This document shows positions 17,073 through 53,764 of a stretch of DNA of 64,000 nucleotides, piece by piece. The stretch covers positions 13,594,359 through 13,658,358 of the forward strand of contig OZ316893.1 of NCBI GenBank assembly GCA_973895155.1, written 5' to 3'. The notes beneath the pieces were generated by a model that had not been told where the DNA came from, did no database searches, and worked only from the letters and a program-made list of their open reading frames with translations. Positions within the stretch are counted from its first letter, which is position 1. Every line of letters starts with the position of its first letter. A program made the position numbers and the translations under genes. Source of the stretch: Marsupella aquatica. Lineage: Eukaryota > Plantae > Marchantiophyta.

Positions 17073-20000
17073 TTAAACTTCCAACCTTTGTAGGACACTG
17101 GCCCTGTCAAACCGAAAATTCCGGAAGCCTGCGCCAGGAGTCTCACGCACAGGATTCGCCGAATGAACTAGGTCAGCCGGAGGTTGTTGCAGTGGAGCCG
17201 ATGATGGAGGCACAGTGGGTCCTGTACTGCTTACAGAACTCGAACTTCCGCTGTGCTTCACTTTCCAGACTGTGGTGGCTGCACAAATTACAAATGAAAT
17301 CAGGGTCTAAAGTGCTTCACATCCCCAGCTTACCGAAGCTTCTGAAGGGAGAGATGAACCACAGTAGCTGAAGATTACACAATCAGCCTAAAAAAGGTGT
17401 CATTAGTACAAGAGGACCACAACCAATCGCCCTGTAGAACCAAAGAAAGATGTTGGACCTTTCTCAAAAACTCCCGGTCCGCTTCTACATTAACAAAACA
17501 AGGTGAAAGGCAAAATATTTTGACCGTGTACATGACAGTGAGGAGTAGTCCAAGAGCTCTGAGAAACATAAGAAAGAAAATAAAGGGAAATAAATCCCCT
17601 TCAAACTATAGAAGGCCTAGTTGCATATAGTCTCTCGTGACCTACTTCCACTGCTTTGACATTCTTAAACAGTTGAACATTATATCAGAACATACATGAA
17701 ATATAATCAATCATATTTTTAACTAAAATGGAGATGTCATAAGTGGAGATGATAAAGCTGTTTCCCAAATACCTTTGCTCGACGAGTCTGTCTTTGGAGC
17801 AGCTGCAGCCCTATTGCCATGAATCCAATTTTTAAGATGCCTGCTTAGAAGACAATCAGGAACTTTAGGGGCAAAGAACAATTTATCAACATAACACCAA
17901 GCTGGATAGGTCATCTGGATTTCAAACCTTCGTCCAAAAGAAAATATCAATCCAATCCAAGGGAAACAAAACACAAATCAAACATCATTTACACGTTGAA
18001 TATGTTAAACTTCGGTTAACATGGGGCATGAAGCAGGTCTTACCCCACAAAGGGCCAAACCATGAAATATTTCATCCCAGTTGGACCACGGTTGTGGGAC
18101 TGTTCGTTGCTTGCCACAGGAAGCTCGTCGACTCTGTGCCAAGCTATTTCCTGAATAGGAAACGATATCTTAGTGGAGTGTTGTCCTAAGTAACATGGCC
18201 AAAGTCAAACCTCATTCTCAACACAGGTGTACTCTTTGCCCTAGTTAGATGCAATTTTATTGCACTCTGGTCTTCACTTCTCGGCAGAGGACTACTTTCC
18301 TAACTTCTGATCTCTGACATGCCCAAGCCCACAAACCCGCACGGCCAGTGAATGCACAAAGAACTATTGTCAACGGAACATACACTTATTTCCTTCTTCG
18401 TCTGGGGAACGAACAACGTGTCTTCGCTGACTCCAGGAATGATATATAGTCGCATCCTCTGCTGGCCTATAACCACCTCCAGATAATGATCCACTTGTAA
18501 CAAACCTGAAATATCAAATCCTGTCTCTTCCCACACCTGCAGGAGACGCAATTGACGCACACAGATCTCTCACTCCAGAGTAAGCAATTCACTTAAACAA
18601 AAGTTGTACCGAGAGCCGCCGCGCCCACCAAACCCGCACCAAATGAAGACAAGACACAGCAAAGCAAAGCCAATTGAGTTTTTCAACTCATGACCTAACT
18701 TTCAGGGCGATCAGGCAAGGCACGAACCTCTCGGGCTGCACAATTGTGGTCCTCTTCATCCTTGTTTTTCTTCCCTCTTGGGAAACTCCAGCTCGCGCCT
18801 GGTTTCCACCCTTTCACGAGCAGACACTGAGCAAAAAAATTGGCTACTCAGTCTGTTCCATATTCGCAACTTGCCTAAGCAGAAAATGAAACAATCTTGG
18901 CAACCCAAATCCTCACTCATATCCCTAACGGAATATCTGCTGCAGGAAATGTCTCACAGCACGAATGTACTACGCGTACTAAAGCACCACATCACGCACC
19001 CTTTCAAAGGACTCGTCCAGGATGATGGCACCAGTAACTGGCACACGAATTTTGTACGTTGTAAAGTCCTTATAAATATCATCGATGTGGGCAATGTAGG
19101 GCCGCAGTGCGGCACAGCTCTGGAACACTTCCTTAGTCAAGACCAACAATACGCAGCAGAGAAGGAAATCATCGGACAAAACTGAGCAGCCTTGTCGTCA
19201 CAATATCATCCGACAAACTTGAAAGCCAGTTCCTCATAAGATAGATCTAGATAGACGCTTCGTGCTTAACAAATGGAACGAAAAGTTAAGACATTCTGAA
19301 AACTCCCAGATAAATCGCCAAAATTGAGGTCCTGCAGATAAACAGAGCACTGGCTTGCTGACCAGGCCTCTACTAACTTCACGCGGCTCTCCGCTTGTGC
19401 CATTAAGGAAAAGCGGACGTTCTATCAGGGTAAGGATACTTAAGGATGTAAAGTCGCGAAGATTAAGACTTTTCAAAGAGGCATTCTGTTCCATCGTATT
19501 GTCCTCATAGAACCAGTGAGCTTGCTCTACTAGAAACAATATCCTCTCGAAGGATTGCAGCTCCTCCTCCGGGGCATTCAATACGAAACGACTGCACAGC
19601 ACATACAAACAAACAGCGGCAAGCAAACAAACAAAAAAACCAGAGTTCTTAGTATCCACACTATCTCCATGAAGTCTAAGAGCATGAATCCGCTTCGACA
19701 ACCTTTCCTCTCAATTTTTCCAAAAATGCAACCGGACGAAGTGGGCGGTCGAATCGACACCTACTCCTTCCACAAATTTGGAACAGCGGTCCGTCCACCG
19801 TCCATAATTCTCTCCTTTATACTCCCCTCACCTCAATAAATCTAAAAAGACGAAAATGCTGCAGGCAGGCAGGAAGGCAAGGCAAGGCAATCTGCCTCCA
19901 GAGCCCTTCGTTGAACACTCGAGAGCCAAAATCAATGACGGCAGAACATACTCCACTCGACTCCACTCAACTCCATGCTCAAGAACAAGCACGAGAGGAC

Positions 20001-21151: not shown

Positions 21152-23457
21152 TTGATTGAGGGCAATAAGGAGTTTTTCAAATTTAACGACCACAAAGTGA
21201 GCAAGAGGAAGGAACTTCCAAGAACCCTGATTTGTTTGTTAGGTTGGGATTTTGAAGCCCTGATTTGCTTGTTGGATTGGTTATTTGAAGTGAAAAAAGG
21301 GTCAAACAAAGTACAATGGAGTAAAGAGCAAAAGTTGTGCTGAGAACAAATACCAAACTTAAATGAAGAGGATATATGAGTACAAATGCAAACCCCAAAG
21401 ACCCTTAGTAGAAAGACAACAAATAAAGATCATCTAGTGCAACAGGGTGATGAGCTAATGGTACATGTAGTGCAATATGATTATGAGCTAAGGGGATCTA
21501 GTGCAATAGTGTGCTGAGCTAATTACACACGGAGTGCAATAGGATGATAAGCTAAGGGGTGCCCTCTGTGGGCAAGCCTCCCCTGTGGAGCAACGGTATA
21601 AGGTTCATCGATTGTGGGACCTTGATCATGCAGAATTAATGATTAATCTAAACAGTTGCTGAGGCAAAAAGTATTGCACTAGAAATAGAAGCCGCCCTCA
21701 TCAGGACATGCATTGAATGCCCAAATTGAAAATCTCGAGGATGATTTCCAGTCACCCACTTGCCACCCCAGACGCCCTCCTTGGCCTTCTCTTGTTTGCC
21801 ACAATGGGGGTGATTGGAAATGAGCACATAAGTTTATTTCAGCTTTTAAGTACTTTGCCCACTAAAGATGTTCTAATTGACAATATTATATGGCTTTTTT
21901 TGTATTTATAAATATGCCACGAATTCGTATATGGATGACAAGTTCATCAATGTAACCAGGAGAATTATTGTCACTTGCCTATCCAACCATTTATACGTAA
22001 GATCGTACTTTCCTTTGCATAAACTGTTGGTATCGTGTTACAGGGTCGTTGAGGGACGCTATTTGGAGGATTCCCACACGTAAGGATGAATATGTTTGAT
22101 TCCGCTCCCGGAAGTGTACTTTTTGATCAAGTCTACCGACTGGCCTCTACGTTTTTGATCAAGTCATGGGGAATGGTCCTACATTCTACAACTAATGGCC
22201 ACCGGGTGAGTGTTGTCACCACTCCCCCTTACATGGTCAATCGTACAAACGTTTTACAATAGGATTTTAACACTAGTGACCAAGGCAACCTCTTTCACAA
22301 CAAAGCCAATCACATGCACTAGGGGAAGGAAAACAGGCAACACAAGAAGTAACAAGTGACACACAAAATTTCTGAACTTCAAACCAAATCCATATTTCTT
22401 AGTGGTGTACGCAACACATGCAAGGACAACCCGGGCTCCTGCCGTCTGCCCAACTCCTCCCTCCTTGGGACAAGCGATACGTCCTCCACCTCACTACTCT
22501 GGCTGAAATCCCTCCTCTTCCGTGTGCTACTCACAAAGATCTTTCCATACTAAACTAAGTTCCCCCCAATTCACTACGGGGCTCCCCCTAAATACTAAAA
22601 AAACACACCAAAGCACCCCTCACGGGGTTACGACGATGGTGGCTACCCTAGCAGCGCCACTAAAACCTTACACGAGAAATCCCTAACCTAAAACATACGG
22701 CACATACATGCTCCTAAAACCCTAATCTAACTATGGGACCGACGGTGCCTTCAACAGTGCCAACTGTAATCCGTAATGCATACAAAAAAGGGCCCTACAC
22801 TAGTCGAAACTCAGAACTACTCCAAATACGCTTCTAATGAACAACCTGTGTGGCCCTCCTCCACCTGAACACGACTCCGTAAACAGACCTCGGACGGTCA
22901 AGTTATGGATGTTTGAATCCGTAATATGCCCGAACTCATAACTTCTTGGTCTTGGCTCCGCTCAGGGAGCGTCGCACCTTGCCAGAATTGGCTCCTCAAG
23001 CTCCTTCCAACAAGCCCTGGAGTTGATCATTCTGAGATGTGTCAGAAACGATAATCCATATGGCTAACATCCGTATGGCCTACTAGTCCTCCTCATTACC
23101 ACCACCGGTCCGCCATAGAAGGAGGGGCCCCAACAATTGTCGAAACTAAAATATTCTCATAATTCACTTCTGACAAAATATCTTAGGAGCCCTCCTCTTC
23201 CTGATCACGGCTCCATAAACGGCGCACAAAACTGAGGTCAAACGGTTGAGAGATATATACGGCTGTTCACATATTTACGATAATCGGGGCACTGCCTCCC
23301 TCCTCTCCATCCGTACAACACACCACCCCGGCTTTGCAAAACATAGATCACCGTTCCCGTAGGGGCTGCTACTTACTCCTCCCCTTGGAAAGTCGGGACC
23401 TCCTACAGTACGGAAGTCTGTACGGCCTCCAAACTCCCGTATTCTCAAAAAACGTGA

Positions 23458-23785
23458 TGTCACACCATTCTAGGTAGTGTTAGAGTGTATCATACTATCT
23501 AGATCCGTATGTTTGGTATGTGTGCTATATGAGCCGATAAGGTTCCGTCAGGTTTGTGTGAGAGGGTACTTCTCACTTGTGAGGCATTGAAAGGTCATCT
23601 TTCAATGTTGAGCCTTGGAGAGAGAGGAGCTTGAGTGGCTATGGTGGCTGTGAGCTCCGCTTGTGTAACGTGGATTCCTTGAGTAGTGCAAGGTGCGTTG
23701 GCTTGATATACGTGTGTGATCGGATCGGTGCGGGATCGATGCGGTATTGTTGACCGGGATCGTTGTGCCGATTGTGTGGAGATTA
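23458..23785 (+). repeat. Terminal repeat A1 (328 bp)
   Basis: Matches 29501-29828 with about 4 substitutions by eye. Confidence 0.95.
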
Positions 23786-23796
23786 CATTGAAAGAT
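23785..23796 (+). promoter_or_regulatory. Putative self-priming primer-binding site
   Basis: ACATTGAAAGAT is the exact reverse complement of ATCTTTCAATGT (23597-23608) inside repeat A. No TGG tRNA-type PBS follows A1. Confidence 0.6.
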
Positions 23797-25142
23797 CAGA
23801 TGCGAACTCTGTTGTGCGGACTGTGCAAACAGAAGTTCGTTTCGGATTGATTGAGTTGGTGATGGTTTGTGGAAATCGTTTCAATCTGTTGCGTGGATCC
23901 GTGGTATCTCGAATCTCATTGAGTAGATCCTTAGTCCTTCAATCTGCTGCAGTTTGTGTTGGCAAATGCTATTTTGAGGATCTCAAATCATTGAAGATCG
24001 CAGATCGCTCATTGTGTCACCGGATCTGGGCACATAACGCTACTGTTGTAGCCGAGTTTGAATATTGGTTTTCGTGGAGGAAAGCATTCCGCGAATGTTG
24101 GCAGATCGTCGGACAGTGGAAGTCATCCACGAGGCTTCAGATCTGATTTTCGACTACTGTGATAAGGCGCAAGTGAAGCGGCGATCTGCCGATGCTCCGC
24201 ACGGTTATGTGGAAGGGCCAATCCGCATTTTTCATGAAGGAAACGATTCACAAAGTTGCTGCAACTCGCGGATCCGATCGACAGGGCGCCGACTGTCCGT
24301 CGCCTGCTTGCAGCTGATCCGACCGCAACTCCCGTTTGACAGGGCGCCGAAGACTGTCCGTCGTTCTGTGAAGGGAAACTGAGAGACGGAAATCTGAATG
24401 TTGCCAAAACTCGATTCGGCGTAGCGGGCGTGAAGGGCTCACTCTTTGGCTCATCTCAGCGTTTTGAGGCTTCGAGGCAACTCGTGGTTACTCGGGACGA
24501 GGGGCGTGAGGGCGGAGCAGGAGCGGGCGGGCCAGCAAGCCACTGGTACGTGAGGAGTAGTTGCAAGTGCTGCCATTTTGGAGTGACAGATTTGGTGCAT
24601 AATGACAAGTGAGAGGTCACCCATCCCAAAGCTATTCCTCCTCTCATGCGCTTAACTAGCAAGTTTCTATGTGGTGCATTGTACATGCTTCCTTCCACAT
24701 TTGATATCCAAGGAATGAGGCCCTAGGGGTTTTATGCACTTTTGAATTCATCTAGATACTCTGTTTTAGCTAGTTTGCGATGGATTCTTGAATATTTGAT
24801 GCGGGATTCTTGAGGCCTATTATGAAGGCCCTACATTGAACTATATGCACATTATTTACATGTATTTCTGATTGATTGGTGTGGAGAGTTGTGGTAAATC
24901 CTCTTCTTGTTGTTGGATCCTCTCCACACATGCTTCCTGTTTATGCACCATGTTAGTTTGGCGTGGGCGCTTGATTCTATAGGAGTGATCCGGGTTTGCA
25001 ACCGGACATTCTAGTTGTGCTATGTATTTCTCTCCTGGTGATGTTGGAGTGATGCCCAACACACCATGGTGAGTGCTTGTGGTGCTGACAAGGATAGATT
25101 GCCCTTAAGGTTAGCACATAGATTAGGTTAGGGTTGGTCACC

Positions 25143-26327
25143 ATGGATTCTTCTGGTGCTGTTGGATTACCCGATGGACGACAGACCGGTTTCACTCGGA
25201 GTGGGGCACAGTTTCGGCCAGCGGCATTGGTAGCAGTCAGCAGTGCAGCTTCAGACAGTGATTCTGATGAGGACTCAGTGACCAGTTCTCCTCATCATCA
25301 GGTGGTTGCACCTTTGTTGTGGGATATGGACGAGATGTACGGGGCTACAAAGGGCCCATGACGATACTCTGGTGCAGTTGGCACAATTGATCTGGATGAC
25401 TTCATCCAGGATTTTGATACGTGGTGCAATATGCAAACATTGCGTAACGCCACATTGTTTACCCCTTTCATGGCATGGAAGGGATTATTTCAGCATTTGG
25501 AGGGGCCACCCATGGATGACTACCATGAGTTTCGGAAGGCTCATTTGGTTGAGATTGAGGCATGGAGGCAGCATTGGTCGCCTAATTATGTGTCCATCAC
25601 CTATGGCACTAGTGCGGCTGCCCAACCCATTGCCATAGCTGTTGCTTCTTCTAGCAGCACTAGCCAGAGTGGCACACCATCCACCAACAGCACTCCAGCA
25701 GCATCCACCGCTACTCCTGCCGGTGTGATTGTGACAGGAACTGGAGTTGCGCCAGCATTTAACCTTGTGGTGGAATTCTTTGAGGTACTGAAACAGAACT
25801 ATCAGGGTGTAAGAACTGATAAGTTGAAGGGTCTTCAGGAGTTCCAGCGCAAGACTGGAGAGAGTCTACGTGAGGCATACACTCGTATGCGCAGATTGAT
25901 CACTGTCACCAAGGGAGTGACAGAGGCTCAGGCAGTCCAGTTTTGGTATGCAATTCTGGACAGAGAATTGCGACGTAGAGTGAGAGATGTCACTCTGCTT
26001 AGGGATGCAGATCCCACATTAGCAGTTGTTTTTACACTTTCTAAGCGCATTGAGCTCAATATGGTGAATGAGAAGGTGGTGACTTCCGGATTTGCCAAGG
26101 AAGCACCAAAGGCTACATCCACATCCACATCCACACCACAGCCTACTGCACGAAAGAGCCAGAGGGAGAAGCCTACTGCACGAGAGTCTACCAGCCAGAG
26201 ACCTATGCCCTCTTATGCTGGACAACAGTCAGGATGTTGGACCTATGGTGGGGATCATGCACAAAGATATTGCCCAGATCATAGAGGATCAGGGGGAGCA
26301 TCAGCGCGTGATCAGGGGGAGCTCTGA
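25143..26327 (+). pseudogene. Gypsy gag with one in-frame stop
   Basis: ORFs 25134-25361 and 25431-26327 are in the same frame, separated by TGA. Retrotrans_gag-like LQEFQRKTGESLREAYTRMRRL is present. The Zn knuckle CWTYGGDHAQRYC is degenerate (second Cys to Tyr). Confidence 0.8.
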
Positions 26328-26347
26328 TTCAAAGCAAAACTCAAGAT

Positions 26348-27697
26348 TTGTTGGAGGCTGGATTGGTGGAGATTTCATATGGGGAGTATGCATCTGCCAC
26401 AATGATGCCAGCCAAGAAGGATGTGCATGGCAATTACACAAATAGGCGCATGTGTGGTGATTACAAACCTATTATTTGCCAGACAAAATCTGATCGATAT
26501 GCCATGCCCACACCTGATGAGATCTTTGATGCTGTGGGGCATGCAAAGGTTTTCAGTTCATTGGATCTGAGGGCAGGGTACCATCAGCTTCCAATTAGGC
26601 ATGCTGACAGGTCCAAGACAACATTCTGGGGGATTGATTCTTATGGCAAAGATCGTTTGTATCAGTGGTTATTCTTACCATTTGGGTTGAAGAATGCACC
26701 AGCTGAGTTCCAGAGAGTCATGGATCGAATCCTTGCAGGTTTGGATTTTGTCAGATGTTATATTGATGATATTTTGGTCTATTCTTCTATTGTGGAAGAA
26801 CATCAACAGCACTTGCAGATTGTGTTGGAGAGATTGAGAGCACATGGGTTGAAGCTCCATCCTGGCAAGTGTAAGTTCTTCCAAGACCAGATTGAGTATT
26901 TGGGCCACACTATATACCCAGGGGGATTGGGTGTACAGCAGACTAAAGTGGAGGCCATTACACAGATTCCTTGTCCTACTGATGTGAGTAGAGTTCGTGC
27001 ATTCTTGGGATTGGCGAGCTACTATAGGAGGTATGTTAAAGGATTTAGCCAGCTTGCTAAACCTTTGACCATAATCACTAAGTTGGATCAAGAATGGATT
27101 TGGGGTGATGACCTGGAGCGTGCCTTTCAGGAGTTGAAGCAAAGGTTGGCATCATCCCCTATTTTGAGAAGACCCATTTCAGGCAGACCATTTCAGCTAC
27201 ACACTGATTGGAGTGGAGTAGGACTTGGAGCAGTGCTGACTCAGAAGGATGATGAGGGGAATGAGTTTGTTGTGGCTTATGCCAGTAGATCAAACAATTC
27301 AGTAGAGGCTAAGTATAGCTCTTATGAGGGAGAGTGTTTGGCAGCAGTGTGGGCTGTTGCACACTTTCGTTGCTACTTGTTTGGTAACCCCTTCACCTTG
27401 ATCACTGATCATCAGCCTCTTAAGTGGTTAATGGAGTCTGACAAGCTTACAGGGAAGCTTGCACGATGGGCATTGTTGTTACAGGAGTATGATTTCCAGG
27501 TGGTGCATAGGCCTGGAAAAGTGAACTTGGATGCAGATGGATTAAACCGCAATCCATGTACCAGTCAGCAAGATGAGACTGAAGCTAGATGGCATGATGA
27601 GTCAGATAAGGAGATGGTGCCAGGATGGCATGCATCTACCTTTCTTTGTTGGGTGCCAACATACAGTGGACTCTACCTCATTGGATGGAGTGGATGA
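26348..27697 (+). pseudogene. Gypsy pol: reverse transcriptase + RNase H
   Basis: RT motifs RMCGDYK, FSSLDLRAGYHQ, LPFGLKNAPAEFQR and YIDDILV. RNase H motifs LHTDWS, EGECLA, TDHQPL and DADGLNR. Frameshift near 27660. Confidence 0.95.
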
Positions 27698-27699
27698 TG

Positions 27700-29186
27700 A
27701 GTCTTCAGATGTGGATGTTAGTGAGGTAACTATTGGACAGCAAGATATTCACAATGATGTGAGTGTGTTGGAATATCTGCGCAGTGGTTCTATTGTTGGT
27801 AGTGTTGATGCCAAGGAACGTGACAGGGTTCTATAGAGAGCCAAGAGGTTTCGATGGGAGGGAAACCATCTTTTGAGAGTACTGCATGATGGTAGCGTGT
27901 TGGTGGTCCCAAAACCATCATAGAGAATACATTTGGTGCGACATGCGCATGAGGAGTTGGGTCACTTTGGTGTAAAGCGCACTTACAGTTTGTTGCAGAC
28001 ACAGTATTGGTGGCGTGGTATGCACACTCATGTCCAGCAGTTGATAGCTAAGTGTGTGGTATGTGATAGAGTGAGAGCATCATTTAATGCTCCCACTCCC
28101 CAGTTACACCCGTTGTCGATCATGGGTTTGGGATATCGTTGGAGTTTGGATTTTGCTGGTCCATTACCTCTTACCCAACGTCATAATCGGTATGTTTTGG
28201 TCATGGTGGAGCACTTCTCCAAGTGGATTGAGCTAGTGGCGTTGCCAGATAAAGCCAATGGAGGAGTTGCTGCTACATTTTTGGATCGTGTACTCAGTCA
28301 TTTTGGAGCACCAGCTGAGGTGTTGACTGATCAGGGAACTGAGTTTCATGGAGAGTTTGAGAGTTTGTGTGAACAAGTTCTGATTGATCATCGTACTACC
28401 TCTCATGATCATCCTGAGGCAGATAGATTAGCTGAGAGAGTTGTGCAAACTGTGAAGAGAGGATTGCGTAAGTATGGCTTGCAGGTTGGTCATCTGGGAG
28501 ATTGGGATCTCCAGCTACCTTGGTTAGCTATGGGCTACCGTTTCAGTCGGCAAACATCACTTGCATCCTTCTCACCTTACTTTTTGCTCTATGGTAGAGA
28601 GCCAGATTTGCCAACAACTATTCGTCGTGATGTTGCATCAGTTGTGAACTTGGATGATCCTGATGTTTGGGTCAAGGTGTGTTCAGAGAGAGCACGGGTA
28701 TTTCAGCAAGTGATGCCCATGGCTTTTGACAACCTTGCCATTGCCCAACATCGTGATACTTTGAGGTATGCCACTATTCGTGGAGGAGGTTACCGTGCAA
28801 GCGTTCGGCAATTTCATCCTGGTGATTATATTTATTTGCAGCAGACAGCACCCACGACACTTGATGTGACCGCAGGTCGGACAATCTTACGTGTGCGTGA
28901 AGTGTTGCCTTCTGGTGTCCTGATGTTGGAGGGACGCGATGGTATGGTTTGGAAGGATCATGTGCGCAACTATGCACCATGTCACCTTCCCAATATTGAT
29001 GGTACTGTAGATCCAAGCTTGGCACATTTTCGTGCTGGCTTGAAATGTATGTTGTGTGGATCTGCTCAGGGGGCAACTACTATGTTGATTTGTGATAAGT
29101 GTTCTAGAGGATGACACATGTCATGTTTGACACCACCATTGCAGGTGATTCCTAGTGGATCATGGTTGTGTCCTCAGTGTCGGTGA
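27700..29186 (+). pseudogene. Gypsy integrase (HHCC + DDE) with C-terminal PHD finger
   Basis: HEELGH..CVVC, then WSLDFAGP, VLTDQGTEF and AERVVQTVK (D,D,E). C-terminus reads CMLC..MLICDKCSRG*HMSCLTPPLQVIPSGSWLCPQCR (C4HC3 PHD, with Trp to TGA at 29112-29114). Stop at 29186. Confidence 0.92.
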
Positions 29187-29350
29187 AGCCGACTAGTTAT
29201 CATTTGTGTTCTCTTGGCAGATATGGATTGCAGGTAGGTGATCGATGAGGCTCACTTGCACCCGGCCTCCTGATCTTCACACCTAAAAAGGTGTATATCA
29301 ACCTTGTAGAACTCATGGCTAGCTAGAGTTAGGGGACCTTACTCCCAGCT

Positions 29351-29362
29351 AAGGGGGGCGAC
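29351..29362 (+). promoter_or_regulatory. Polypurine tract directly before repeat B1
   Basis: AAGGGGGGCGAC is immediately followed by TGTGGG (start of B1). Confidence 0.75.
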
Positions 29363-29965
29363 TGTGGGTTTTGGACATGTGTAGACATGAGTTCCACTTG
29401 TATTCCATTCTCTTGTGTTTGTGATGTGGCAGTGTGACTATGTCTGGATGTATGTGACAAACAATGTATGTTGTGTAGCGATATGTATGCACACGATAGC
29501 TGTCACACCATTCTAGGTAGTGTTAGAGTGTATCATACTATCTAGATCCGTATGTTTGGTATGTGTGCTATATGAGCCGATAAGGTTCCGTCAGGTTTGT
29601 GTGAGAGGGTACTTCTCACTTGTGAGGCATTGAAAGGTCATCTTTCAATGTTGAGCCTTGGAGAGAGAGGAGCTTGAGTGGCTATGGTGGCTGTGAGCTC
29701 CGCTTGTGTAACATGGATTCCTTGAGTAGTGCAAGGTGCGTTGGCTTGACATAGGTGTGTGATCGGATCGGTGCGGGATCAATGCGGTATTGTTGACCGG
29801 GATCGTTGTGCCGATTGTGTGGAGATTATTGTGGGTTTTGGACATGTGTGGACATGAGTTCCACTTGTATTCCATTCTCTTGTGTTTGTGATGTGGCAGT
29901 GTGACTATGTCTGGATGTATGTGACAAGCGATGTATGTTGTGTAGCGATATGTATGCGCACGACA
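29363..29965 (+). repeat. Right terminal block B1(136)-GC-A2(328)-T-B2(136)
   Basis: B1 and B2 differ by about 5 substitutions. The B1|A2 junction is CACGATA-GC-TGTCAC and the A2|B2 junction is GAGATTA-T-TGTGGG. Confidence 0.95.
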
Positions 29966-31276
29966 GTGATCCAGTGTATCTTCTCCATCTTAGCTCCGTT
30001 TTGGCCGTGTGACACGTCGTTGGAATCAGCTCGACGAGTTATTCCTAACAAGCCCATGAACTCCTAATTTTGAGATGGTCGAAAATTTGATGTTCGTACA
30101 ACCAGGATCCGTACACACGTTGAAAGCAAGCACAAGAGGGAAAGGGTTCAGGGTTTAGGTATGGATGGGAACCCCACAAGGGAGAATAGAAAAAAAGGGA
30201 AATAAGAAAGTGTGAGGGCCCCTTCTATGTATGTGTCCTTCTACGGAGTGGTTCTTCTACGGAGTGCCCTTCTACGGAGTGCGAAAGGGAAAGAGAGCAA
30301 AAACCGTATGAGGACCACACAAAGGGTGAAGGGGAACACAAGTGTGGGAACCCCTTCCTTCTAAGGGCCCTCCCACCATCACTACTCCAAGATTGTCTAG
30401 TTTTACCATTTTACAGGCATTGAGGTTTCTCAAGATGTCACTTTTTGATACAGACCTAAACTCAACTAGGAAACCCCAGTTTTGCATGGGGCTCATTGAG
30501 GGCTTCAAAATGAATCCAAACATGACCATGTTTGGAATAGTACTAGCGCAACAACGTCTGTTTCAAGTTTCAATGTTTTCTATATTTTGGTCATTATTCC
30601 CGTTTTACGCCTTATGTGGAGCCTCCGGCTAGTCCCCACCCCTCCGAGATGCCCACACCTTGCCTCCAAGTCCTTGGGATGCCTTGTGGCCTCCTTGTAC
30701 CCCCTCAATGGTTCCTTTGTCGCCCAACACCCCTCTCAACTCCGGCTTCCGGTTGTCGCCTATATATTAGAACTAACAAAAATTAAAAAATTTGAAAATC
30801 AAAACACTTTTGCTACACCTACTTGTCTTTCTACATATATACGCAGTTATAAGTCATCACTAAGTTACTACCGGGTTTGGGGCCTGTCACAATTATATAC
30901 AAAAACAATGGCATATTTGTAAACACACTAAAATAATGTAGTATTGTATATTTAGACATCTTTAGTGGCAATGTACTTAAAATTTTAAATTTATATTTAA
31001 TAACATTTGACAAAACAAAGCTATACTTTGAAGAATGAGGTAAAATAAAGGATGACCATTAGCGATAAGCCAAAAACAATCAGTAAAAGTAAATTCTTGC
31101 ACCACCACAAATTGACTTGTGAAACTCCGGGTGAAACTCAGGTTGAGGTCATGAGACTCAAAGTTGTCTTAATCTGCTTGTCTCATTTTGGGGATGACTT
31201 AGAGCAAAGCACTTCATAAAGCCCTTCTTCAGGCCCTAATCAAATCATGAGTAGTTCAACTGAGAGACAACACATG

Positions 31277-37790: not shown

Positions 37791-37884
37791 ACTTTGAGGA
37801 CGACGACCCCCCTCTAACCTGGTAAATTAATCTTCAATAGATTGTTTGGAGGAGAGTGTAAAGTGAAAAGACTTTTGCTTTGCA

Positions 37885-40503
37885 ATGGATGCCGCTACAA
37901 CGACCCTGCCAGCGCCAAGCTCCAGTTCCACATCTCAGCCCCACTCAGCAGCAGCACCCACCCAGGTGCCCGTAAGCCTGAGGCCGGGAGGTGGCGGTCG
38001 CTTTTCTTTTAGACAGAATTCTGGAAGCATTGGCGGTGGTGGATCAGCAACTTCGTCCGATTCTTTTTCCGGATCGTCAGCATTGGCAGGAAGGGTTTCT
38101 GGCTTCACACCAGGAGGTGCTCCAAACCCCACTTTTCCATACCGCCAACAAGAGAAGAGATCCACCAAGTCTAAAAGTGAACTAATCCGCTATTCCAAGG
38201 ATGAACTATTGCGATTAAAGGAGCATTGGACCGCATTACCGGAGGAGATTGCTGGATCGGATGTCCAGCGGTCGAGCAGAGCTTTGGACGATTCAGTTGT
38301 CCGCCGGGAGCCGACTTATATTCCAGAGAGGTCTGTAGAGCCCGATAGTAGGGATTGGCGAGCTCGCACGCCAATGTCCGCACCCCCTCCCGAGCAAGAG
38401 AGAGATAGACAGGAGAGACCCCGAGATCAGTACCGGGAGAGGCCCGTACTCAAGGAGAACAGGGGCCCAGGCGATCGCCAGCAGAATCCCCAGTCCCAAA
38501 ATCGTGTCTTAGATCAAACTCCATCTCAAAACAATCAACAGCAGCAGCAGCAGCAGCAGGGAGCTGGCCCTGCCATCGTAAAATCAGCGAATCCGTGGTC
38601 AGCCAGACGAGGAGCACAGTCAGAGAAGGAAAAGATAATCAAGACTGTTAAAGGTATTTTGAATAAGCTCACACCAGAAAAGTATGATACTCTCCTGGAG
38701 CAGCTTACACAAGCAGGGATCACATCTGATGAGATTCTGCAGGGTGTCATCTCGTTGGTTTTTGACAAAGCAGTCCTCGAGCCCACATTTTGCTCCATGT
38801 ACTCCATGCTTTGCGTTGATCTCAGCAAGGCTCTTCCAGAGTTCCCTCCTGCCGAGCCGGGCGACAGGCCCATCACGTTCAGGAGAGTGTTGCTGAACAC
38901 CTGCCAGTCGGAGTTCGAGGGAGCAGATGCGCTCCGGGCCGAAATTCGCCAGCTGACGAAGCCGGAACAGGAGCAGGAACGCGCAGAGAAGGAAAGGAAT
39001 GTGAAGCTGCGGACGTTAGGAAACATCAAATTCATCGGAGAGCTCTTCAAGCAAAAGATGATCCCAGAAAAGATCGTGCACTCCTGCATCCAGGAACTTC
39101 TCGGACCCGAAAAGGATTTCCCGGCTGAGGAGAATGTGGAGGCACTATGCCAGCTATTGTCCACAGTGGGCAAGTCGTTAGACGCCAGCTTAAAATCCCA
39201 TCCTGCCATGGATACCTACTTTGTAAGGCTGCAGGACCTTGGCAACAAGAAAACACTGCCATCCCGAATTCGGTTCATGGTCCGGGATATCCTGGACGTG
39301 CGGAGTAACGCCTGGATTCCAAGGCGGGAGGAAGTGAAGGCAAAAACAATTAGCGAGGTACACGCCGAGGCAGAACAGAAGCTTGGACTTCGGGCTGGAA
39401 GTGTTAGTATGAGGGTTGGCCGGACTGGAGCTGCTGCGGGTTTGATGCCTGGTGGTATGATGCCAGGTGCACCGGGTTCTGTAAGAGCGGGTGGGATGAT
39501 GCCCGGGATGCCTGGAATGCCCGGCTTCGTACCGTCAGTTGGGGGACCCCCTCCATTTAGTCAGGGATTGGATGATGATGGCGGTTGGGAAACTGTTGGC
39601 TCTATCCGCAAGAGCAAGCGGGAGCCTTCAGCAACTGCCACTGCAACTTCTGCATACAATCGGCTGCCATATCCAGGGATGAGAACCTCAAGAATAGGTA
39701 CGCCTAGCGCTTTGCTTGGTAAATCTAGTGCTTTGCTTGGGACTTCCGCCCCCGCTCAACCCCCTGTCGCGGCGTTTGGGAATGGACCTGGTGTTGGTGA
39801 TGCAGGACCTCGTCCTGTGCCCCCCAGTATTCATCCTCCAGCAGCAGTAGAGATTCCTGCCAAGGCCCCGGAAAGGGATAGTCGTCCTGAAATACCTGCA
39901 TCTACTGCCCCACCAAGTGACCAACAAGTGACTCAGCTGAACAGAAAATCAGAATCACTTCTTAACGAGTATTTCTCAATAGTTGACCTTAAGGAGGCCG
40001 CTCTTTGTGTCAAAGAGCTGGGGGGTCCTGACCTTCATCCCCAATTTGTGCAATTCGTCTTGGCGGTGGTGTTTGACAAAAGAGATCGGGAGCAGGAGCT
40101 CGTCTCAAAGTTGTTTGATTATCTTCACTCGGAAAAGATACTCTCAAGTGAAGCCTTCAGGTCGGGTTTTATCCGTTCAGCCGAACAGTTCGAAGATGTT
40201 GCTGTAGATGCACCATTGGCACCCAAACTAATGGGGAAGTTGCTGGCGGGCTTGGTGTTGAGTAAGGCTGCTGATATCGGCCTGTTGGTAGAGGTTTGCA
40301 AGAAGGTTGAAGAGGATGACTACCTTCGCAGGGCTGTGCTTGGATCCACATTCAAGTCATTGCTTTCCAAAAGTAACGAGGGGCAAACTGTGGCACTTTT
40401 CAGGACCTTGTCCCCAGAGGATCTGAGTTTGTTTGGTGAAAAGAGTGACCTTACCAAGACTCTTAAAGGAGAAGGACTCGATGCTTTAGCTCTTTCTCTA
40501 TAA
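37885..40503 (+). CDS. eIFiso4G: Eukaryotic translation initiation factor iso4G, 872 aa, single coding exon
   Basis: N-terminal SLRPGG motif; eIF4E-binding YxxxxLL (YSKDELL); MIF4G domain ([49 protein letters not shown]); C-terminal MA3 domain ([21 protein letters not shown]). Confidence 0.96.
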
Positions 40504-43090
40504 ATTTCGTACCTCATGGAATGTTCTTCTTTACCAAGAAATGTTTATCTTTAAGATTACATAAAAGAATGGTTGCCCTGTAACGAAAAACAAGATGCAA
40601 GTCTTGGACCTTCAGTCTTCAAGGACTTCTACAATTATGAGTCCCTGTTTTGACATCTTTTGTGGAGAGCATTTGATTTGTTTGACCTGGAGGCTTGCGT
40701 GATCTATGAGGGGACCATTTCCGACCAAAATGGTTGGATGGATTCCAGTTACTATCCTGCATGATACAATTTTGAATACGTCAGCAGCGCAACAAGTGCA
40801 CGAACGTCAGTAATTGAGCCGGACATGGCTTTCACTTGTCCCAGAGATGAGGCAAATCAAGAGCCCTCTGAACGCTTGTCTGAGAAGACTTGACCCAATA
40901 TTGCTTATCAATGACCACGAACGTAGAGAACGTTCTAATGGTTCTGGTAAAACCGTTTGCTTGAGTAGGTGGGATAACATAAAGGCCAAGGCCCTTGGAT
41001 GTAGTATTCGTTGGCACGTTTATTTCTTTGAGTGCATGCGGTATCGTCGTAGGTATGGTACCCATTTTCATTTTATATGTTTATGGGACGGAAGGATTCG
41101 AACATTTCATTGTCCCTACCTGACAGGTAGTATGGTGCTCTGATGTTCTCGAGGATAGGATTAGTTTTAAGTAGGGTATGCTGTGAAATGCTTACCGCCA
41201 CTGAGGTGAGACGAGTCGAGTTCGGTCCTTTGTATTTGCAATCTCCTGTTGTGTATAATTCAGGAAAGCAGCCTAACTTGTTAATTATGTGTCGTATAAT
41301 GACTTCTAGAATATGTCTGTTGAATGTTATATACACATATAGTCTTAAGTCATTGGACTAGTGGGTTTACATAGGCGGTTCAGTAAAAGCGCAAAGGGCT
41401 TTACGAACGAACACCAAGAGCCGATAGCCCATATAGCAATGTGTGGTGTTGAAGTCGAGTGAATGTGCTAGGATGGCGTTATATATGGGAGGTTTGGTTT
41501 GGTGAATTTAAAGCATTAGAATCATCTTTTAATATGTACAATCTGGAGCATATAACCTTCATCCAAGAAGGCAAAGTTGTAGTGGCCACGGTTCTCCTTG
41601 GTCAGTCTCCGTGACTCTCCTGCACTTCTTCTGTATTCACCTTGATTGACTGAATTTTTCCATGATGCCGTTACTGGCTCTACAAGTTGACGAAGTCATG
41701 GAACACCTCTATTACGGTACCAGCAGTCTGGAAGCATTGATTTCTTGCTGGAAATTATCTTCAAAATTCAGTGTCGACACTTCATGTCCTGTTTTCTCAG
41801 GCTAACGACTGACTCCACTGCCTGTTGTAAGTATGGCTTTATGATCAGTAATATTTTGGTTCTCTATTAACCTGGCCAGGAACTGTGCGACTTTAATTTG
41901 CAGCTCACGAAGATGCTTGGGTAAGACAATGGATGTTTAATCAGGTGCACGCGGCAGGCAATGACTCAACCAGTTACTTAAGAATTTGGTCACCTGGTTT
42001 CTGAAAGTGATTTTGCTACTGGTGCGCTATGTGGCTTGAATGACTCCGCAAGACTATCTGGAGCTGACTCTGCAAGACTATTCCAAGGCGTCTCTTCAAG
42101 TTTCTTGGATAAATTGTCCTTAGCTGAGTGAGTCAAACGTTTGGTTGCGAACGCAGAACTCTCAATCTGAATTCTGCTGCTTTGCGACTGCATCCATCCA
42201 TTTGTTTGTGGCATGGTTCAACATTCTCGATACTTGGCATCCGAGTGTGACCACATGTACTGCATGCACATCTTCATATCCTCCTAAAGGAATCCCACGT
42301 TGTCTTTGGCAGCCACAACAGCGGCCAGAGGCTGACCTCATCCCCCTCCAAGCCCTCAAGCCTTGTATCCCATCCTCCATCTTTTTCTGTTCAAACCAGG
42401 ACGTGCTGTATGTATACCAAATTGTTTGGTTGCATTTGAACCATTGAAGGGATATAGAATCGTGAACGGCACCAACACCCTTGCCGTCCACATCTCAATC
42501 TGTCTTCACGAGAACACTGGAAGCCTAAGCGGGCTGGAAGCAATCTGCTCTGCTTTTAGGAAGCCATAAAGCAAATTGTGAATCGGAGAGTGGGCAACCG
42601 CATAATCGACGTTTGTGGATGACAACTTCAAAGCGAGAGTGACTCTGAATGTGCAGACTTTTTTCACCGTTTCCCGTCTTAACAGTAAAATTATGGGCGT
42701 GTGACCAGCAGGTCTCATGTTCAGTCCCTGGGCAGACAATTATGCATGTTGGGTTTTTATAGTAACTATAACAAATAAATGACAGCTGTTAAGATAGCCC
42801 AACATTGAACTAAATAAAATACCAGTGGACATCGAGGGGAAATTTTATTTATTTATTTTGGATTTGTTGGAAATGGTTTGAAACAATCTTTCCAAGGAGC
42901 CTAATGTCATCAAAATTCATTGAGAATTGAGAGACTTACTAATTTCCAAAGAGGGCTGTCTTGTTTCTTGCCACATTTATTCATACTGTACATGAACTAT
43001 ACGAGCCAAAAAGAGGGTTTTGCTCCAGTCCCTCCAGGTTGCAAAAGTCTATTGGACCATTTTAGCGAGCAAGGAGGTCCATTTAGGTGT

Positions 43091-43528
43091 TGTCACACCA
43101 TTAGGAGTATATTGTGTTGTCTGAGTTGAGAGCTTTGATGTGTGTGCTATTTTAGCACTTTAGGGTTTCTCTACGTTTGGAGGTATACTTATCCCTTGTG
43201 GTGGCTTGGAGACATCATCTTTTCAATGTTGAGCCTTCAAGCATGAGCTTTGGCGGGCTATGGTGGCCAATCAGACTTGTATGCATGCAACACTAATTCC
43301 TTTAAGTGCAAGGCATGTTTGGCTTGACATTTGTGTGTTATCAGATTGGACAGGACCAATTGGGTATTGTTGGCTTTGATCTTTGCTTGATTCATTGAGA
43401 TCATTGTGGGTTTGTATATGTGGACATGAGTTCCACTTGTATTCCATTCTCCTATGTTTGTTTGTGCCTATGTTTTGACGTGTGTGCCACACAATGTATA
43501 TTGTTTAGCAATGTGTATGGGCACGATA
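43091..43528 (+). mobile_element. Diverged solo A-B terminal repeat of the split-repeat Gypsy family
   Basis: Starts TGTCACACCATT and retains ATCTTTTCAATGTTGAGCCTT and GCTATGGTGGC (A). Junction is GAGATCATTGTGGG, followed by TGTGGACATGAGTTCCACTTGTATTCCATTCTC (B). Ends GCACGATA. Inserted between two ~100-bp repeat units (42991-43085 and 43534-43628). Confidence 0.85.
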
Positions 43529-45356
43529 GAGTGTATGAACTACATGAGCAGAAAAGAGTGTTTTGCTCCTGTCCCTCCAGGTTGCAAAAGTGTATTGGAG
43601 CATTTTGGAAAGTGAGTAGGTCCATTTATGCTTCAATTTCCTTAAAAAAAATTCATGAAATGTTTCCGGGTTCAGAGGTGATGTTTTTCATTCACACAAG
43701 AAATAATCAAGGTTCGCTCATATGGATGCAGACAAACTTAAGCCACCATCAAGTCCCATTGCATCTCCTCATAACTTTTGTTGGTCCTTTTTCAAAAAAA
43801 TTATGAGTTCCTTCAAAAGAGGACTTTTTTCTCTGCTTTTTCCCCTTTATTGGGTATAGCCATTGGGATCCTGTCTCCCAGTTAGGCATCTTTGTTCATT
43901 CTTTTGGTACAGCTTAGCTTCATGGAAAGGTTTAATACTCTGGGACAAGAAATTGCGCCTGTGTTCATAAGGTAGCAAACCTGAAGTTATGATGGACCAC
44001 AACATTTGACAAGATGCTTGGTTAGAACATTACAAACCCCATAGACTAATTTGAAATGGTACTTTTCTCTCAAATAGCACCTGCCTTTGTATTAAACTAA
44101 ACATTTTTGGTGTCAAAATGTGTTGGTCTGGCAGAGTCCTAAGCTCAAATTATGTGGTCCATCAGTATGCTCTTTCAGTCCTTTTTGAACATATGTTAGG
44201 TTCGCTCATGAGGGGATTCTTGTAAATAAAGCCAGAGTGAGGTGCTTCTCACTTTGGGAAATGCCCTTCCCCCACGAGTGTGCAACCTCGGATGGGCACA
44301 AATATTTGACATAGCTTCTCAGATATACACAGGAACTTTACAATGTCACACTACTCCTGGGATTGTCAGGGGGGGGGGGGGTTCACTTAATGAATTGTGT
44401 GGGGGATACCGCATGCAAAACCACATGAGATCCTGGCCTAATTTAAATATCCCTATCTCATAAATAAACATTTATGAATACTACTATATCATTATGTTAA
44501 ACAACCTGGTGAATACTACTATTATCATTATGTTAAGGTGTAGTTTCTAAAAGATATATATAATTGGAAAACACTATCTAGTTTTGCATTTAGAACACCA
44601 TGTCTTAATTCTTAGTACCCGTTATAAAAATTATCAAATCAAACAACATAAAAATATGTAATTTTAATGACACTGTGTTCGTTCCTTTTTGTACTTTACC
44701 CCAAAGTCGCTGTATGGGAGTGTAATAGCTTAGATACACATTACCCATGGTAACCAAGGCAATTCAACTCCTTCACTTGAGTAAGAATGGAAGCCCCGGA
44801 CAGAATACTGGAATCCATTGAAAACCTTATATTACCAGTCAAATACATGTCTATACGTCTCAACACTCTACTTCACTTTGTTGAGTCAAAGGACAGTTCA
44901 AATACAAACGGGAAATAGGGAGGGTTTTCCATTGAGACCTTGTGTTCTTCATGAATCTCCTGCTTGTAGTTAGTAGAGATTTTTCTATGGTTTCATCTAT
45001 GGTGCCGTTTGGCTTCTTTCTCCCCTTCAAGCTGTCTCTAATTAGTGGTGCTTGTCTTCATAACTGCCAATAGTGATAAGATCAATATAGTAGAGTGCCT
45101 CAATGCTTGATGGATATGGGTGATGACTTTTGGCCATAAAGAAATGGCCACAACAATTTGCACAGGGTTGTGTAAAGGTTTTTTAAATTTGTGTTAACTA
45201 GCCTCTTCATTCACTTATAGTTATGGCATATGCTCATCCTTTATGACAAATTTTTTATGAATTATGAATTTTTTCTGTTATAACCCTTAACCTAGTAGGT
45301 AATATCAACTTTTGAGGTTTGTGACCCACTAATTATCGCATAAGCTGCGTCTCCTT

Positions 45357-47283: not shown

Positions 47284-50200
47284 TGTTGGGTATTTACTCT
47301 TACGTCTAGGTTAGGTATGACGTGGTTGGTACACCAACGTGGGTTGGTACAACTACGTGGTTAGGTACAACTACGTGATTAGGTACAACTATGTGGTTAG
47401 GTACAACTACGTGATTAGGTACAACTATGTGGTTAGGTACAACTAAGTTGCACACTATATCATAAGAGGCATGTGTGCTTGGAGAGGTAGAACCAAGGCT
47501 CATTGTTATGGAGCCACTTGAGAGATAGGGAGAGCTTACACTGTGGAGACTCGGTATAGCCGACGGGCTTAGAGTTCAGTAAAGCTCTCTTGTGTGTTCC
47601 CGTGGAGGTAGCCTCAAGGAGGTGAACCACATATCTTTTGTGTCGACTATTGTGCGTTGGATGGTTCATGGGCTTGCCGTTGCGATCGTCGTCTATGCTC
47701 AACAATTGGTATCAGAGCATGCTTGGGAGGTGACGTGTGTTCGTGACGGGATTTCATGACGGTTTTTTCCAGCGTTGAGTGTCGGTGGATTTCCCAGAGT
47801 TCCGTCGCATGGAACTTGGAGTTTATGGGCTCAACGGATAGATCAGGGCAAGAGCTTTCTAACGGTGTGAAGAAATCGCTGAACGGAGCTCGTGGTGCAG
47901 AGAGATCTAAGTTTTTCATCGTTCTGGATTTTGTGAAGAAAGTTGGCAATCGACTCGGAGGGAGAAGCGTCAAGTGTTTTTACTCAACGGAGAGATTGAG
48001 GCAAGACGATTGTTTTGAGTCTGGGATTGGCTCTTTGATGCAAAGAGGAAGGCTAAGAAAAATCAATTACCTTGTTGGACTTGGTGACGACACCAAGTGC
48101 AATTGATCAACATTCGTTGTTGACAAGGTACCATTTTTTTCTCTTTGAAAAACTGATTCGAAATTGGCTATGGCAATTGAGAGAAATCTGTCATCTTTAC
48201 CAATTTTTTCTCCCTCATTCTTTCCTCGTTTTGGGTGCTTCTTATATCGATCTTCACCACCTCGGAGTCTAGTTTCCAAATCTGAAATCAGATCTTGATT
48301 TCGTCAAAACCCGAGTGAGATATCTTGCGTTTGGTGTCGAGGGGTACATTCTGCCGTGTGTATTTTCTGCGCGCGCGACCAGATTTCGACGACGAAGGGT
48401 GGTAGGGGGTTTTGGGGGTTCGAGGACACGTGTCAGCCCCTCGATTGTTCTTCCAAAATTCCCACAGGGCCTGTACAAGGGTCATAGAATATTCCAAAAA
48501 ACCAGAGAGCTATTTTTTGACCGTCCGACAAAGATTTCATCCGCCGAACGGTAACTTTTTTGGTTATTTTTCGGCGAGGTCGTAGCCATTGAAGTTGGCA
48601 ACGTGGCGCACCAATCACATCGCAATTCCGACAACGGGTTGTACTTGGTATTTTGGTTATTCCCTGAGGTGGTCAAAACGGGGGAGTTTCCCAAGGTTTT
48701 ACCCACCTCGACCGAAATTTGAATAACTTTTCCGTCAAATTTCGATTTTGATTTCGGTTTTCAGTATTGGACTCCTAGCTTTGTGGGCTACGCGGCGGTG
48801 TTGAGTTTCGAGTTTTTTGAGAAGTTGTGAAAAATAACATTTTTTGTGATTTTCTCATATGAGTGATTCGGAGGAGTTTTTCGAAGACGTGGAACTTGAA
48901 GCACGAGGATCACTGCAGAGGTTTCAGGGGCAGAGAGAGGAGCAGGAGGAAGAGCACGTGACATCGATACCATCACCGGTGCGACGTGTGGTGGAGGAAG
49001 CAGTACTACTACCGGAGCTCACGGTAGTGCCAAAGAAGAAGATGGGGACTTTCAAGCTTGGGGGACCCAAGTATGAAGTGACAAAGTATGATGGGCGCTC
49101 TGACTACTTGCTATGGGAGAAGCAGGTGAAGGGAGTGCTCTATGCGTCAGGGATGGGCCAACTGCTGAGCCCTCGTGAAGACGATGTTGATGAGAAACAA
49201 TGGGACCGCATGCAGGAGCAGGGAGTGTGGTGTGTTACACTCTATCTCATGCCTCCCATCATCAAGCAGTTGGGTGCACATAAGGATTGCATGTCCTTGT
49301 TTGCGGAATTGCAGAGCAAGTATCACCGTATGGAGTTGTCGAACCGGCTCTACACTTCCTACAAACTGATGAGTTTTAGGATGAAGGAATCCGGTACGAA
49401 GTTGCAAGACCATGTGGATGCTTTCAACGACATGGTCGTTGACTTGGAAAACCTTGGGGAGACTTTGAATGATGAGACGAAGGCTCTGCAGCTTCTTAGT
49501 TCATTGCCTCCATCTTACCAGTCCCTATCACGAGTGTTGTTGCATCGTGATAGGGATACCATTTCATACAATGACGTGGTAAGTTCTCTGCTTAGTGATG
49601 ATCTTTAGCAGAAGATGCACATCACGTCACAGCCTTCATCATCTGGTGCTGCCCTCAATGTTAACCATGGGAGGAGTATGCAGCGACCAACTGGGGACCG
49701 TAGAACCCAGTTTAGATCTAAATCCAGATCTAAGTCCAAGGGTAAATCCCCTCAGAGGAGGCAGGTGACATGTTGGAAGTGCAACCAAGTTGGACACTTC
49801 AAGCGAGACTATAAGGGAAAGGCAACGGAAACTTCATCGGCAAATGTGGCTAGGGCTGATGGAGAAGCTGATTTACTCAATGATGAGTATGTTTTATGAA
49901 GCCGGGGATATGCCCTGTGCACGTCATCTAGGAGAGAAGATGATGGGTGGATTCTTGATTGTGTTTGCTCTTTTCATATTTGTTACATTCGTGAGTTTTT
50001 CAGTTCTTACTCTTTTTCAAACGGTTCAGTTCTGATGGGAAATGATCACTCTTGTCAAATTAAGGGAATTGGGTCTGTGAAGATTCAAATGTTTGATGGC
50101 GCTATGCGCACAGTGTCTGGAGTCAGGTATGTACCTAGTATGCGTAAGAATCTGATTTCACTCAATGTGTTGGATTCAAATGGTCATCAATGGAGCGTTA

Positions 50201-53200: not shown

Positions 53201-53764
53201 ATATATGCTCTTCCTCATTCCTATGTATTAGGCTACGGCTTAGTTCTGGTTTGCTCTAGTTAGAGAGCGAAACCGGTTTGGTTTTTGTCCAGAACTTCCC
53301 GCTGAGGGATCATATACATTGGCAGTATTACTCTCCCCTAGACCAGAGTCAAGGGGAAGATTGTTGGGTATTTACTCTTACGTCTAGGTTAGGTATGACG
53401 TGGTTGGTACAACAACGTGGGTTGGTACAACTACGTGGTTAGGTACAACTATGTGGTTAGGTACAACTACGTGATTAGGTACAACTATGTGGTTAGGTAC
53501 AACTAAGTTGCACACTATATCATAAGAGGCATGTGTGCTTGGAGAGGTAGAACCAAGGCTCATTGTTATGGAGCCACTTGAGAGATAGGGAGAGCTTACA
53601 CTGTGGAGACTCGGTATAGCCGACGGGCTTAGAGTTCAGTAAAGCTCTCTTGTGTGTTCCCGTGGAGGTAGCCTCAAGGAGGTGAACCACGTATCTTTTG
53701 TGTCGACTATTGTGCGTTGGATGGTTCATGGGCTTGCCGTTGCGATCGTCGTCTATGCTCAACA
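47284..53764 (+). mobile_element. Full-length Ty1/Copia LTR retrotransposon (inactivated)
   Basis: LTRs at 47284-47704 and 53362-53764 (TGTT..AACA). 5-bp TSD AATCC (47279-83, 53765-69). tRNA-iMet PBS TGGTATCAGAGC at 47707. PPT AAGGGGAAGA at 53351. Confidence 0.97.
48859..53171 (+). pseudogene. Copia gag-pol (gag, Zn knuckle, PR, GAG-pre-IN, IN, RT, RNase H) with stops and frameshifts
   Basis: Motifs CWKCNQVGH, WILD(C)VCSFH protease, WHSRLGH..CEHC, LRSDNGGEY, PQQNGVVER, YKARLVAKGF, LYGLKQSPRQW, YVDDMLI, STTEAEY and KHIDVRYHF. Stops at 49608 and 50535; frameshifts near 49890 and 51825. Confidence 0.95.

Follow-up and report, generated by a model that had tools for sequence, protein, structure and literature searches.

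Split direct repeats and insertion ends at an internal palindrome in a Ty3/Gypsy retrotransposon of Marsupella aquatica and its relatives

The stretch of 64,000 nt of Marsupella aquatica contig OZ316893.1 analysed here (the window, in whose positions all coordinates are given) contains a Ty3/Gypsy retrotransposon (23458-29965) in which two direct repeats, A and B, are split in the order A1-internal-B1-GC-A2-T-B2. As a sequence-only reading of the window had proposed, the signals for reverse transcription predict a cDNA of the form BA-internal-BA, in which B and A together make up a long terminal repeat (LTR), while the integrated ends fall at the attachment (att) site formed by the internal B/A joint. 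Analysis of the element and of related loci suggests that insertion probably involves both an internal att site and freshly joined cDNA tips, whichever of the two events comes first; the order that we favour, tentatively, is that a two-LTR circle is joined first and then opened by the integrase at the internal palindrome. An old lineage of green-plant Gypsy elements may thus have uncoupled the ends made by reverse transcriptase (RT) from the ends used by integrase (IN), come to require host end-joining and reached the DIRS/Ngaro layout by way of a retroviral-type integrase, although we hold this to be somewhat short of probable.

Self-comparison confirmed the order of the repeats, the GTGA target-site duplication (TSD) and the TGTC..GACA termini at the positions given in Table 1. 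A1 and A2 differ at 4 of 328 bases and B1 and B2 at 5 of 136, with no indels in either pair. The insertion ends, TGTC and GACA, are the two halves of the B/A joint, the palindrome GACA-GC-TGTC; if both strands were cut after CA, the resulting 2-nt 5' overhangs would resemble those of a processed retroviral end. All 20 joints scored have a 2-nt spacer between B and A, and variants of the joint are mostly C>T and G>A; the degenerate att motif alone is unspecific, with six matches in the window. A and B were ruled out as independent LTRs, neither pair having a TSD of its own, and a 5-bp TSD was tried and rejected in favour of 4 bp. The window also contains a solo A-T-B unit (43091-43528) with the same type of ends as the main element and 71%-diverged in this comparison; it is flanked by direct repeats of about 94 bp (42992-43085 and 43535-43628; 85%), apparently a tandem unit split by the insertion. 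The main element is nested in a likely non-autonomous CACTA-type DNA element (21860-30967; inverted ends starting CACTAAAGATGT; flanks GCC/GCA), which measures about 2.6 kb without the insert and has flanks that are repetitive in four sequencing runs.

The primer-binding site (PBS) adjoins A1 and the polypurine tract (PPT) adjoins B1, as the same reading had stated. The PBS is a perfect 12-nt complement of 23597-23608 within A, a score reached by none of 100 control 12-mers, and self-primer pairing of 9.5-12 of 12 recurs at 15 of 15 A1 ends, in four sequence families with different primer sequences (controls scoring as high: 0-10 of 100 per locus). Priming by tRNA was ruled out: there is no TGG start, and the self-complement is present instead. 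These pairings argue for self-primed reverse transcription. The PPT is G-rich and adjoins B1 in the relatives as well as in the window; with the PBS after A1 and the PPT before B1, a BA-internal-BA cDNA is predicted. The standard LTR scheme would give B-GC-A-internal-B-GC-A, and B2, which lies beyond the strand-transfer site, would not be copied.

By its proteins (RT-RNase H-DDE integrase-PHD finger) the element is Ty3/Gypsy, in agreement with its initial assignment. RVT_1, RNase H, H2C2 and rve score above their Pfam cut-offs and gag matches weakly (E 0.02); the gag remnant matches the metagenome loci L075, L090 and L115 at 50-68% by tblastn; the best PDB match of the RT is Ty3 (E 4e-70); and residues D76, D136 and E171 of the open reading frame (ORF) 27924-29114 align with the HHCC/DDE integrases of Ty3 and foamy virus, 34 residues separating D and E. 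The order RT-RNase H-integrase, the HHCC/DDE integrase, the PBS, the PPT and a TSD within the range of 4-6 bp are all those of Ty3/Gypsy elements; the two complete LTRs at the ends are replaced by split repeats, so the element is structurally non-canonical, and its integrase carries no chromodomain but a C-terminal PHD finger, here split by a stop. The window copy is dead, because RT and IN lie in different frames and the IN-PHD stretch contains three stops. It also lacks the protease and methyltransferase stretch that precedes RT in relatives, and contigs of the family have loose ends or other sequence before 26319, the site of this internal deletion. Among split-repeat relatives, a protease lies upstream of RT in L089 and L103 and a C5 methyltransferase in L075 and L080; transposons with such methyltransferases are said, in the available text of PMC6338049, to be absent from land plants 'such as tracheophytes'.

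The layout belongs to a lineage and not to a single copy. An alignment of 16 pol homologs served to retrieve 80 metagenome loci, all of which were searched with A and B queries and 45 of which were self-compared; A or B matched in 35, leaving 31 distinct loci after the removal of four duplicate sites, and the 45 loci without a match are short, end early or fall outside the clade. The 31 loci comprise seven complete A..B-A-B units (one with B2 cut short), two A..B-A forms at a contig end, eight loci with a 3' B-A-B, four A..B forms, seven with a single 3' B and no visible A1, two with a 5' A only, and one (L088) in which B-A is followed by unrelated DNA. Split-repeat forms (B-A-B or A…B-A) thus account for 17 of the 31 and a single B for 11. 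Tabulation of repeat order and TSDs, which the sequence-only reading had proposed as a check, found an LTR pair at the ends of none of the 31, that is, no conventional BA-internal-BA member, and no B ahead of A1 in any of the 15 cases with a visible A1 start (window included); in L085 and L088, A1 was not found within 10 kb upstream. Of the 11 complete units, among them the window copy and the solo unit, 10 are flanked by a 4-bp TSD that matches at three or more of its four positions.

The families concerned are diverse, their best RT segments being 38-80% identical to that of the window. A quick RT-RNase H tree of 77 rows places all 26 split-repeat rows within one clade of 55 rows (SH-aLRT 100). 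This clade also holds proteins of Marchantia, Klebsormidium, Closterium, Haematococcus and Tetraselmis, some with a cytosine methyltransferase, which are known from proteins and not from end repeats; outside it lie three loci with ordinary LTR pairs (L125, L127 and L142), all from the 45 without an A or B match, and four angiosperm proteins. Marchantia polymorpha contains RT relatives at 70-75%, and the nearest named RTs, taken alone, suggest a bryophyte-grade land plant as the probable host of the window. B-A-B ends of the L115-type family occur in L080 (2858-3345, minus strand) and L070 (14294-14773), the latter about 7 kb from the RT used in the tree, a link that is uncertain; in L080 the A1 of another family from this clade lies about 200 bp away from the B-A-B, on the opposite strand. 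Viral contigs gave no match with the integrase query; with the alignment query they gave 66 loci at 26-42% best-segment identity, and the two that were checked (L001 and L003) have no split repeats.

The layout is real and not a misassembly, of which no sign was found. At least 21 contigs in sequencing run X2 run out of the element immediately after 29965 into flanks that differ from one another (agreement 0.38), and flanking-repeat contigs in runs X1 and X2 span the empty site with a joint 23453-29977 that holds 11 letters, space for one GTGA and not for two; among the best matches listed for these joints, the left end of the element has none. The family is abundant: each of four runs yields thousands of its contigs. 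A one-off rearrangement, a misassembly or a tyrosine recombinase (YR) acting in cis or in trans is accordingly a largely refuted and very improbable explanation: split direct repeats are characteristic of YR elements (PMC4157794) and the window copy is internally deleted, but the layout recurs across these divergent families, contig ends and empty sites agree with it, and TSDs are regular at 4 bp. As had been noted from the letters alone, no tyrosine recombinase is visible, the profile scan of 87 ORFs of at least 90 aa from the window element and five relatives being negative, and PF00589 does not occur among the 120 homologs listed.

The other end of the argument is the A2/B2 joint. It differs from its modal form in 6 of the 11 loci of the largest family, compared with 16 indels in 4261 aligned bases of the repeats (about 0.4 per 100; Fisher p 0.0006), a variability that resembles end-joined cDNA tips. 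Divergences of A1/A2 and B1/B2 are matched within each copy (9.6/7.4% in L080, 13.3/12.1% in L089, 14.2/11.6% in L103 and 12.1/13.3% in L115), as expected if all four repeats are reset at insertion. In the series of events that we propose, self-primed reverse transcription would make an ordinary BA-internal-BA cDNA; host end-joining of its tips would produce a two-LTR circle and leave the A2/B2 joint; and the DDE integrase would open the circle at the internal GACA-GC-TGTC palindrome and insert it there, preferring the att site in the 5' LTR, possibly since that LTR is double-stranded first, so that integrase may bind there first. A-internal-B copies would be dead ends, formed through one-LTR circles or by recombination between B1 and B2, and solo A-B units would result from recombination between A1 and A2 or from a double cut. 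The two-LTR circle opened at an internal att site, as first suggested from the window alone, therefore stands in part: the att site is internal and the A/B joint looks end-joined, but one predicted isomer is missing and joining after insertion fits equally well. The other route then suggested, recombination of a one-LTR circle into a pre-existing solo A-B, cannot be the rule for a whole lineage.

Several observations weigh against the circle route. Since the two att sites of a plain two-LTR circle are equivalent, the isomer A-B-A-internal-B is expected about half the time, yet none of the 10 two-LTR forms whose 5' end is visible shows it (0.5^10 = 0.001); its absence demands an asymmetry, with one att copy preferred, and the timing argument given above may rescue a model that otherwise leaves it unexplained. 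The joint is precise in all four cases seen in the window's own family (the window copy, the 71%-diverged solo unit, L069 and L082), and the variable joints were read by eye in decayed metagenome loci outside that family; those of L083 and L091 are ambiguous in size, and L103 and L111, which group in the tree, share an identical 2-nt loss that is possibly inherited, in which case a single event would be involved and the count would be 5 of 10. The TSD of L091 matches at two of four positions, and that of L097 is poly-T. In L088, B-A (13457 onward) runs into unrelated DNA with no B2 within the 2.9 kb available; this may mean that other DNA inserted into the joint later, that joining failed, or that in this rare case the element was inserted by its RT end. 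Most loci come from a few metagenomes and one family, and the circle route is read from integrated copies, not from circles or cDNA.

Some of these points are accounted for by an insertion-first route, which we consider unlikely but a serious contender: integrase would cut the 5' LTR att site of linear cDNA, hold the short B and the long piece, and insert both att ends, leaving the host to repair the A2-B2 break either by end-joining, to give A-internal-B-A-B, or by annealing of B1 and B2, to give A-internal-B, with no free circle required. This route would explain why no isomer turns up (0 of 10) and why the joint varies (6 of 11). It would also account for the many single-B ends, which occur at 11 of 31 loci and are interspersed with two-LTR forms in the tree, and L088 could be a case in which repair failed. 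Against it, every insertion would have to break the chromosome, and the intasome alone would have to retain a small fragment; we know of no precedent for this, and single-B forms would likewise follow from one-LTR circles or later recombination.

A templated route, the model proposed for PAT/Ngaro elements, would have the RNA read through B2, so that the A/B joint is copied from the parent and the B1-A2 joint rebuilds the circle ends for the DDE integrase. It would yield the A-B-A-B order alone, hence no isomer, and joints of identical form are indeed shared by L103 with L111 and by the window copy with its old solo unit. We judge it improbable: in four families the conserved self-primer/PBS and PPT coincide exactly with the A1 end and the B1 start, as in the ordinary LTR programme, which leaves B2 uncopied, and the A2/B2 joint agrees with both RT-defined ends to within a few bases.

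Table 1. Features of the split-repeat element and its relatives (window positions unless a locus is named)
Feature	Position	Strand	Basis or remark
Left TSD, GTGA	23454..23457	+	self-comparison; empty-site joints
Repeat A1, 328 bp, starts TGTC (left att end)	23458..23785	+	324/328 identical to A2
Predicted self-primer (likely RNA 5' end), complementary to PBS	23597..23608	+	12/12 pairs
PBS, putative Tf1-like self-priming type	23785..23796	+	complementarity
gag remnant, stop-to-stop frame	25362..26327	+	Retrotrans_gag E 0.02; tblastn
RT and RNase H	26312..27697	+	Pfam; internal deletion just upstream (~26319)
Integrase (H2C2, rve) with C-terminal PHD finger; 3 in-frame stops	27690..29186	+	
PPT	29351..29360	+	sequence; G-run adjoins B1 in relatives
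Repeat B1, 136 bp	29363..29498	+	RT-defined start probably 29361; contig loose ends behind 29357
Internal att palindrome, here GATA-GC-TGTC	29495..29504	+	GACA-GC-TGTC in L075, L081, L082
Repeat A2	29501..29828	+	self-comparison
A2/B2 joint (single T): PBS-side end of A fused to PPT-side start of B	29826..29832	+	
Repeat B2, ends GACA (right att end)	29830..29965	+	self-comparison; contigs with unlike flanks
Right TSD, GTGA	29966..29969	+	self-comparison
Older solo A-T-B unit, same lineage	43091..43528	+	71% to A2-B2; TGTC..GATA; flanks GTGT/GAGT
C5 methyltransferase domains	L075 8615-9961; L080 8865-9518		also P0003, P0006 (PF00145), including Marchantia proteins

Elsewhere in the window lies a conventional LTR pair, that of an element with broken ORFs (47284-53765; 422-bp LTRs, 94.5% identity) that we take from its motifs to be Copia-like. 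An 878-aa stop-free frame (37867-40503), which could be a large exon or a retrocopy, presumably resembles eIF4G. From motifs we likewise assume a pogo/Tigger-like transposase remnant (8266-8874), a DCP2-like exon (19234-19710) and a bZIP-like N-terminus (58454-59140), all on the minus strand.

Whether the layout had been described for Gypsy elements was left open by the sequence-only reading. It has been noted once, without a mechanism in the portions of the literature consulted: the legend to Fig. 4c of PMC5890265 gives the repeats of KnitGypsy-Dnmt3 of Klebsormidium nitens as those of a DIRS element (A-coding-B-A-B) with Gypsy domains, a likeness to the window element in both respects, and the text examined and a text search of the supplement contain no att site, TSD, priming or integration mechanism for it. 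KnitGypsy/Gypsy-Dnmt3 is mentioned once, without structure, in the available text of bioRxiv 10.64898/2026.05.21.726589. The methyltransferase stretch is absent from the deleted window copy; PF00145 is found in its relatives L075, L080, P0003 and P0006. Klebsormidium proteins fall in the same 55-row clade of the quick tree, and one of them, P0075, we assume from its PF00145 to be KnitGypsy-Dnmt3 itself. The available text of PMC2836005 and PMC6338049 holds nothing on a split-repeat Gypsy layout, and no mechanism for it was found in the literature searched, subscription journals, Repbase reports, theses and bioRxiv supplements being outside the reach of that search. New here are the att anatomy, the predicted self-priming, the variable joint and the missing isomer. 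REXdb was built with LTR-FINDER and required paired LTRs (PMC6317226), so the split-repeat layout presumably could not be collected there; annotation of this kind would overlook or misname these elements, which are abundant and often encode a cytosine methyltransferase and a PHD finger.

The window element resembles PAT, TOC, Kangaroo, Ngaro and VIPER elements in its A1-ORFs-B1-A2-B2 order and in insertion ends that mirror the internal B/A joint (PMC4157794), and differs from them in its DDE integrase, the lack of a YR, its Ty3-type RT, its 4-bp TSD and its PBS and PPT; split direct repeats thus do not imply a tyrosine recombinase. With Tf1/Sushi and the plant Tcn1 chromoviruses (PMC7175516, PMC6317226) it shares, as far as complementarity goes, an 11-12-nt LTR stretch complementary to the PBS, and the Ty3/Gypsy domain order, whereas it has a PHD finger in place of the chromodomain and no LTR pair. 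A PHD finger is also present in Gypsy-7a_cRei, an element with two LTRs (PMC9940879).

Two-LTR circles are commonly regarded as dead ends, and their role in integration is debated for retroviruses; foamy virus and HIV-1 integrases are reported to cut palindromic LTR-LTR junctions (PMC1180852, PMC4372172). The proposed opening of the circle is alike in that a DDE integrase would cut a palindromic CA..TG junction within continuous DNA; in those viruses the junction cut is that of the joined cDNA tips and normal ends are restored. In the window element the cut site is a separate templated site in the LTR, a 10-bp palindrome, and the joined tips remain inside the element, kept as a record in every full insertion, which makes the question testable in natural sequences. 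Members of the IS3 family such as IS911 are inserted by a related DDE enzyme from a junction at which the two ends abut across a short spacer, but they are DNA transposons, and it is their transposase, not copying by RT, that produces this junction. If the circle route is correct, this lineage would be a natural example in which integration requires a two-LTR circle as its substrate, in a large family missed by LTR-pair finders.

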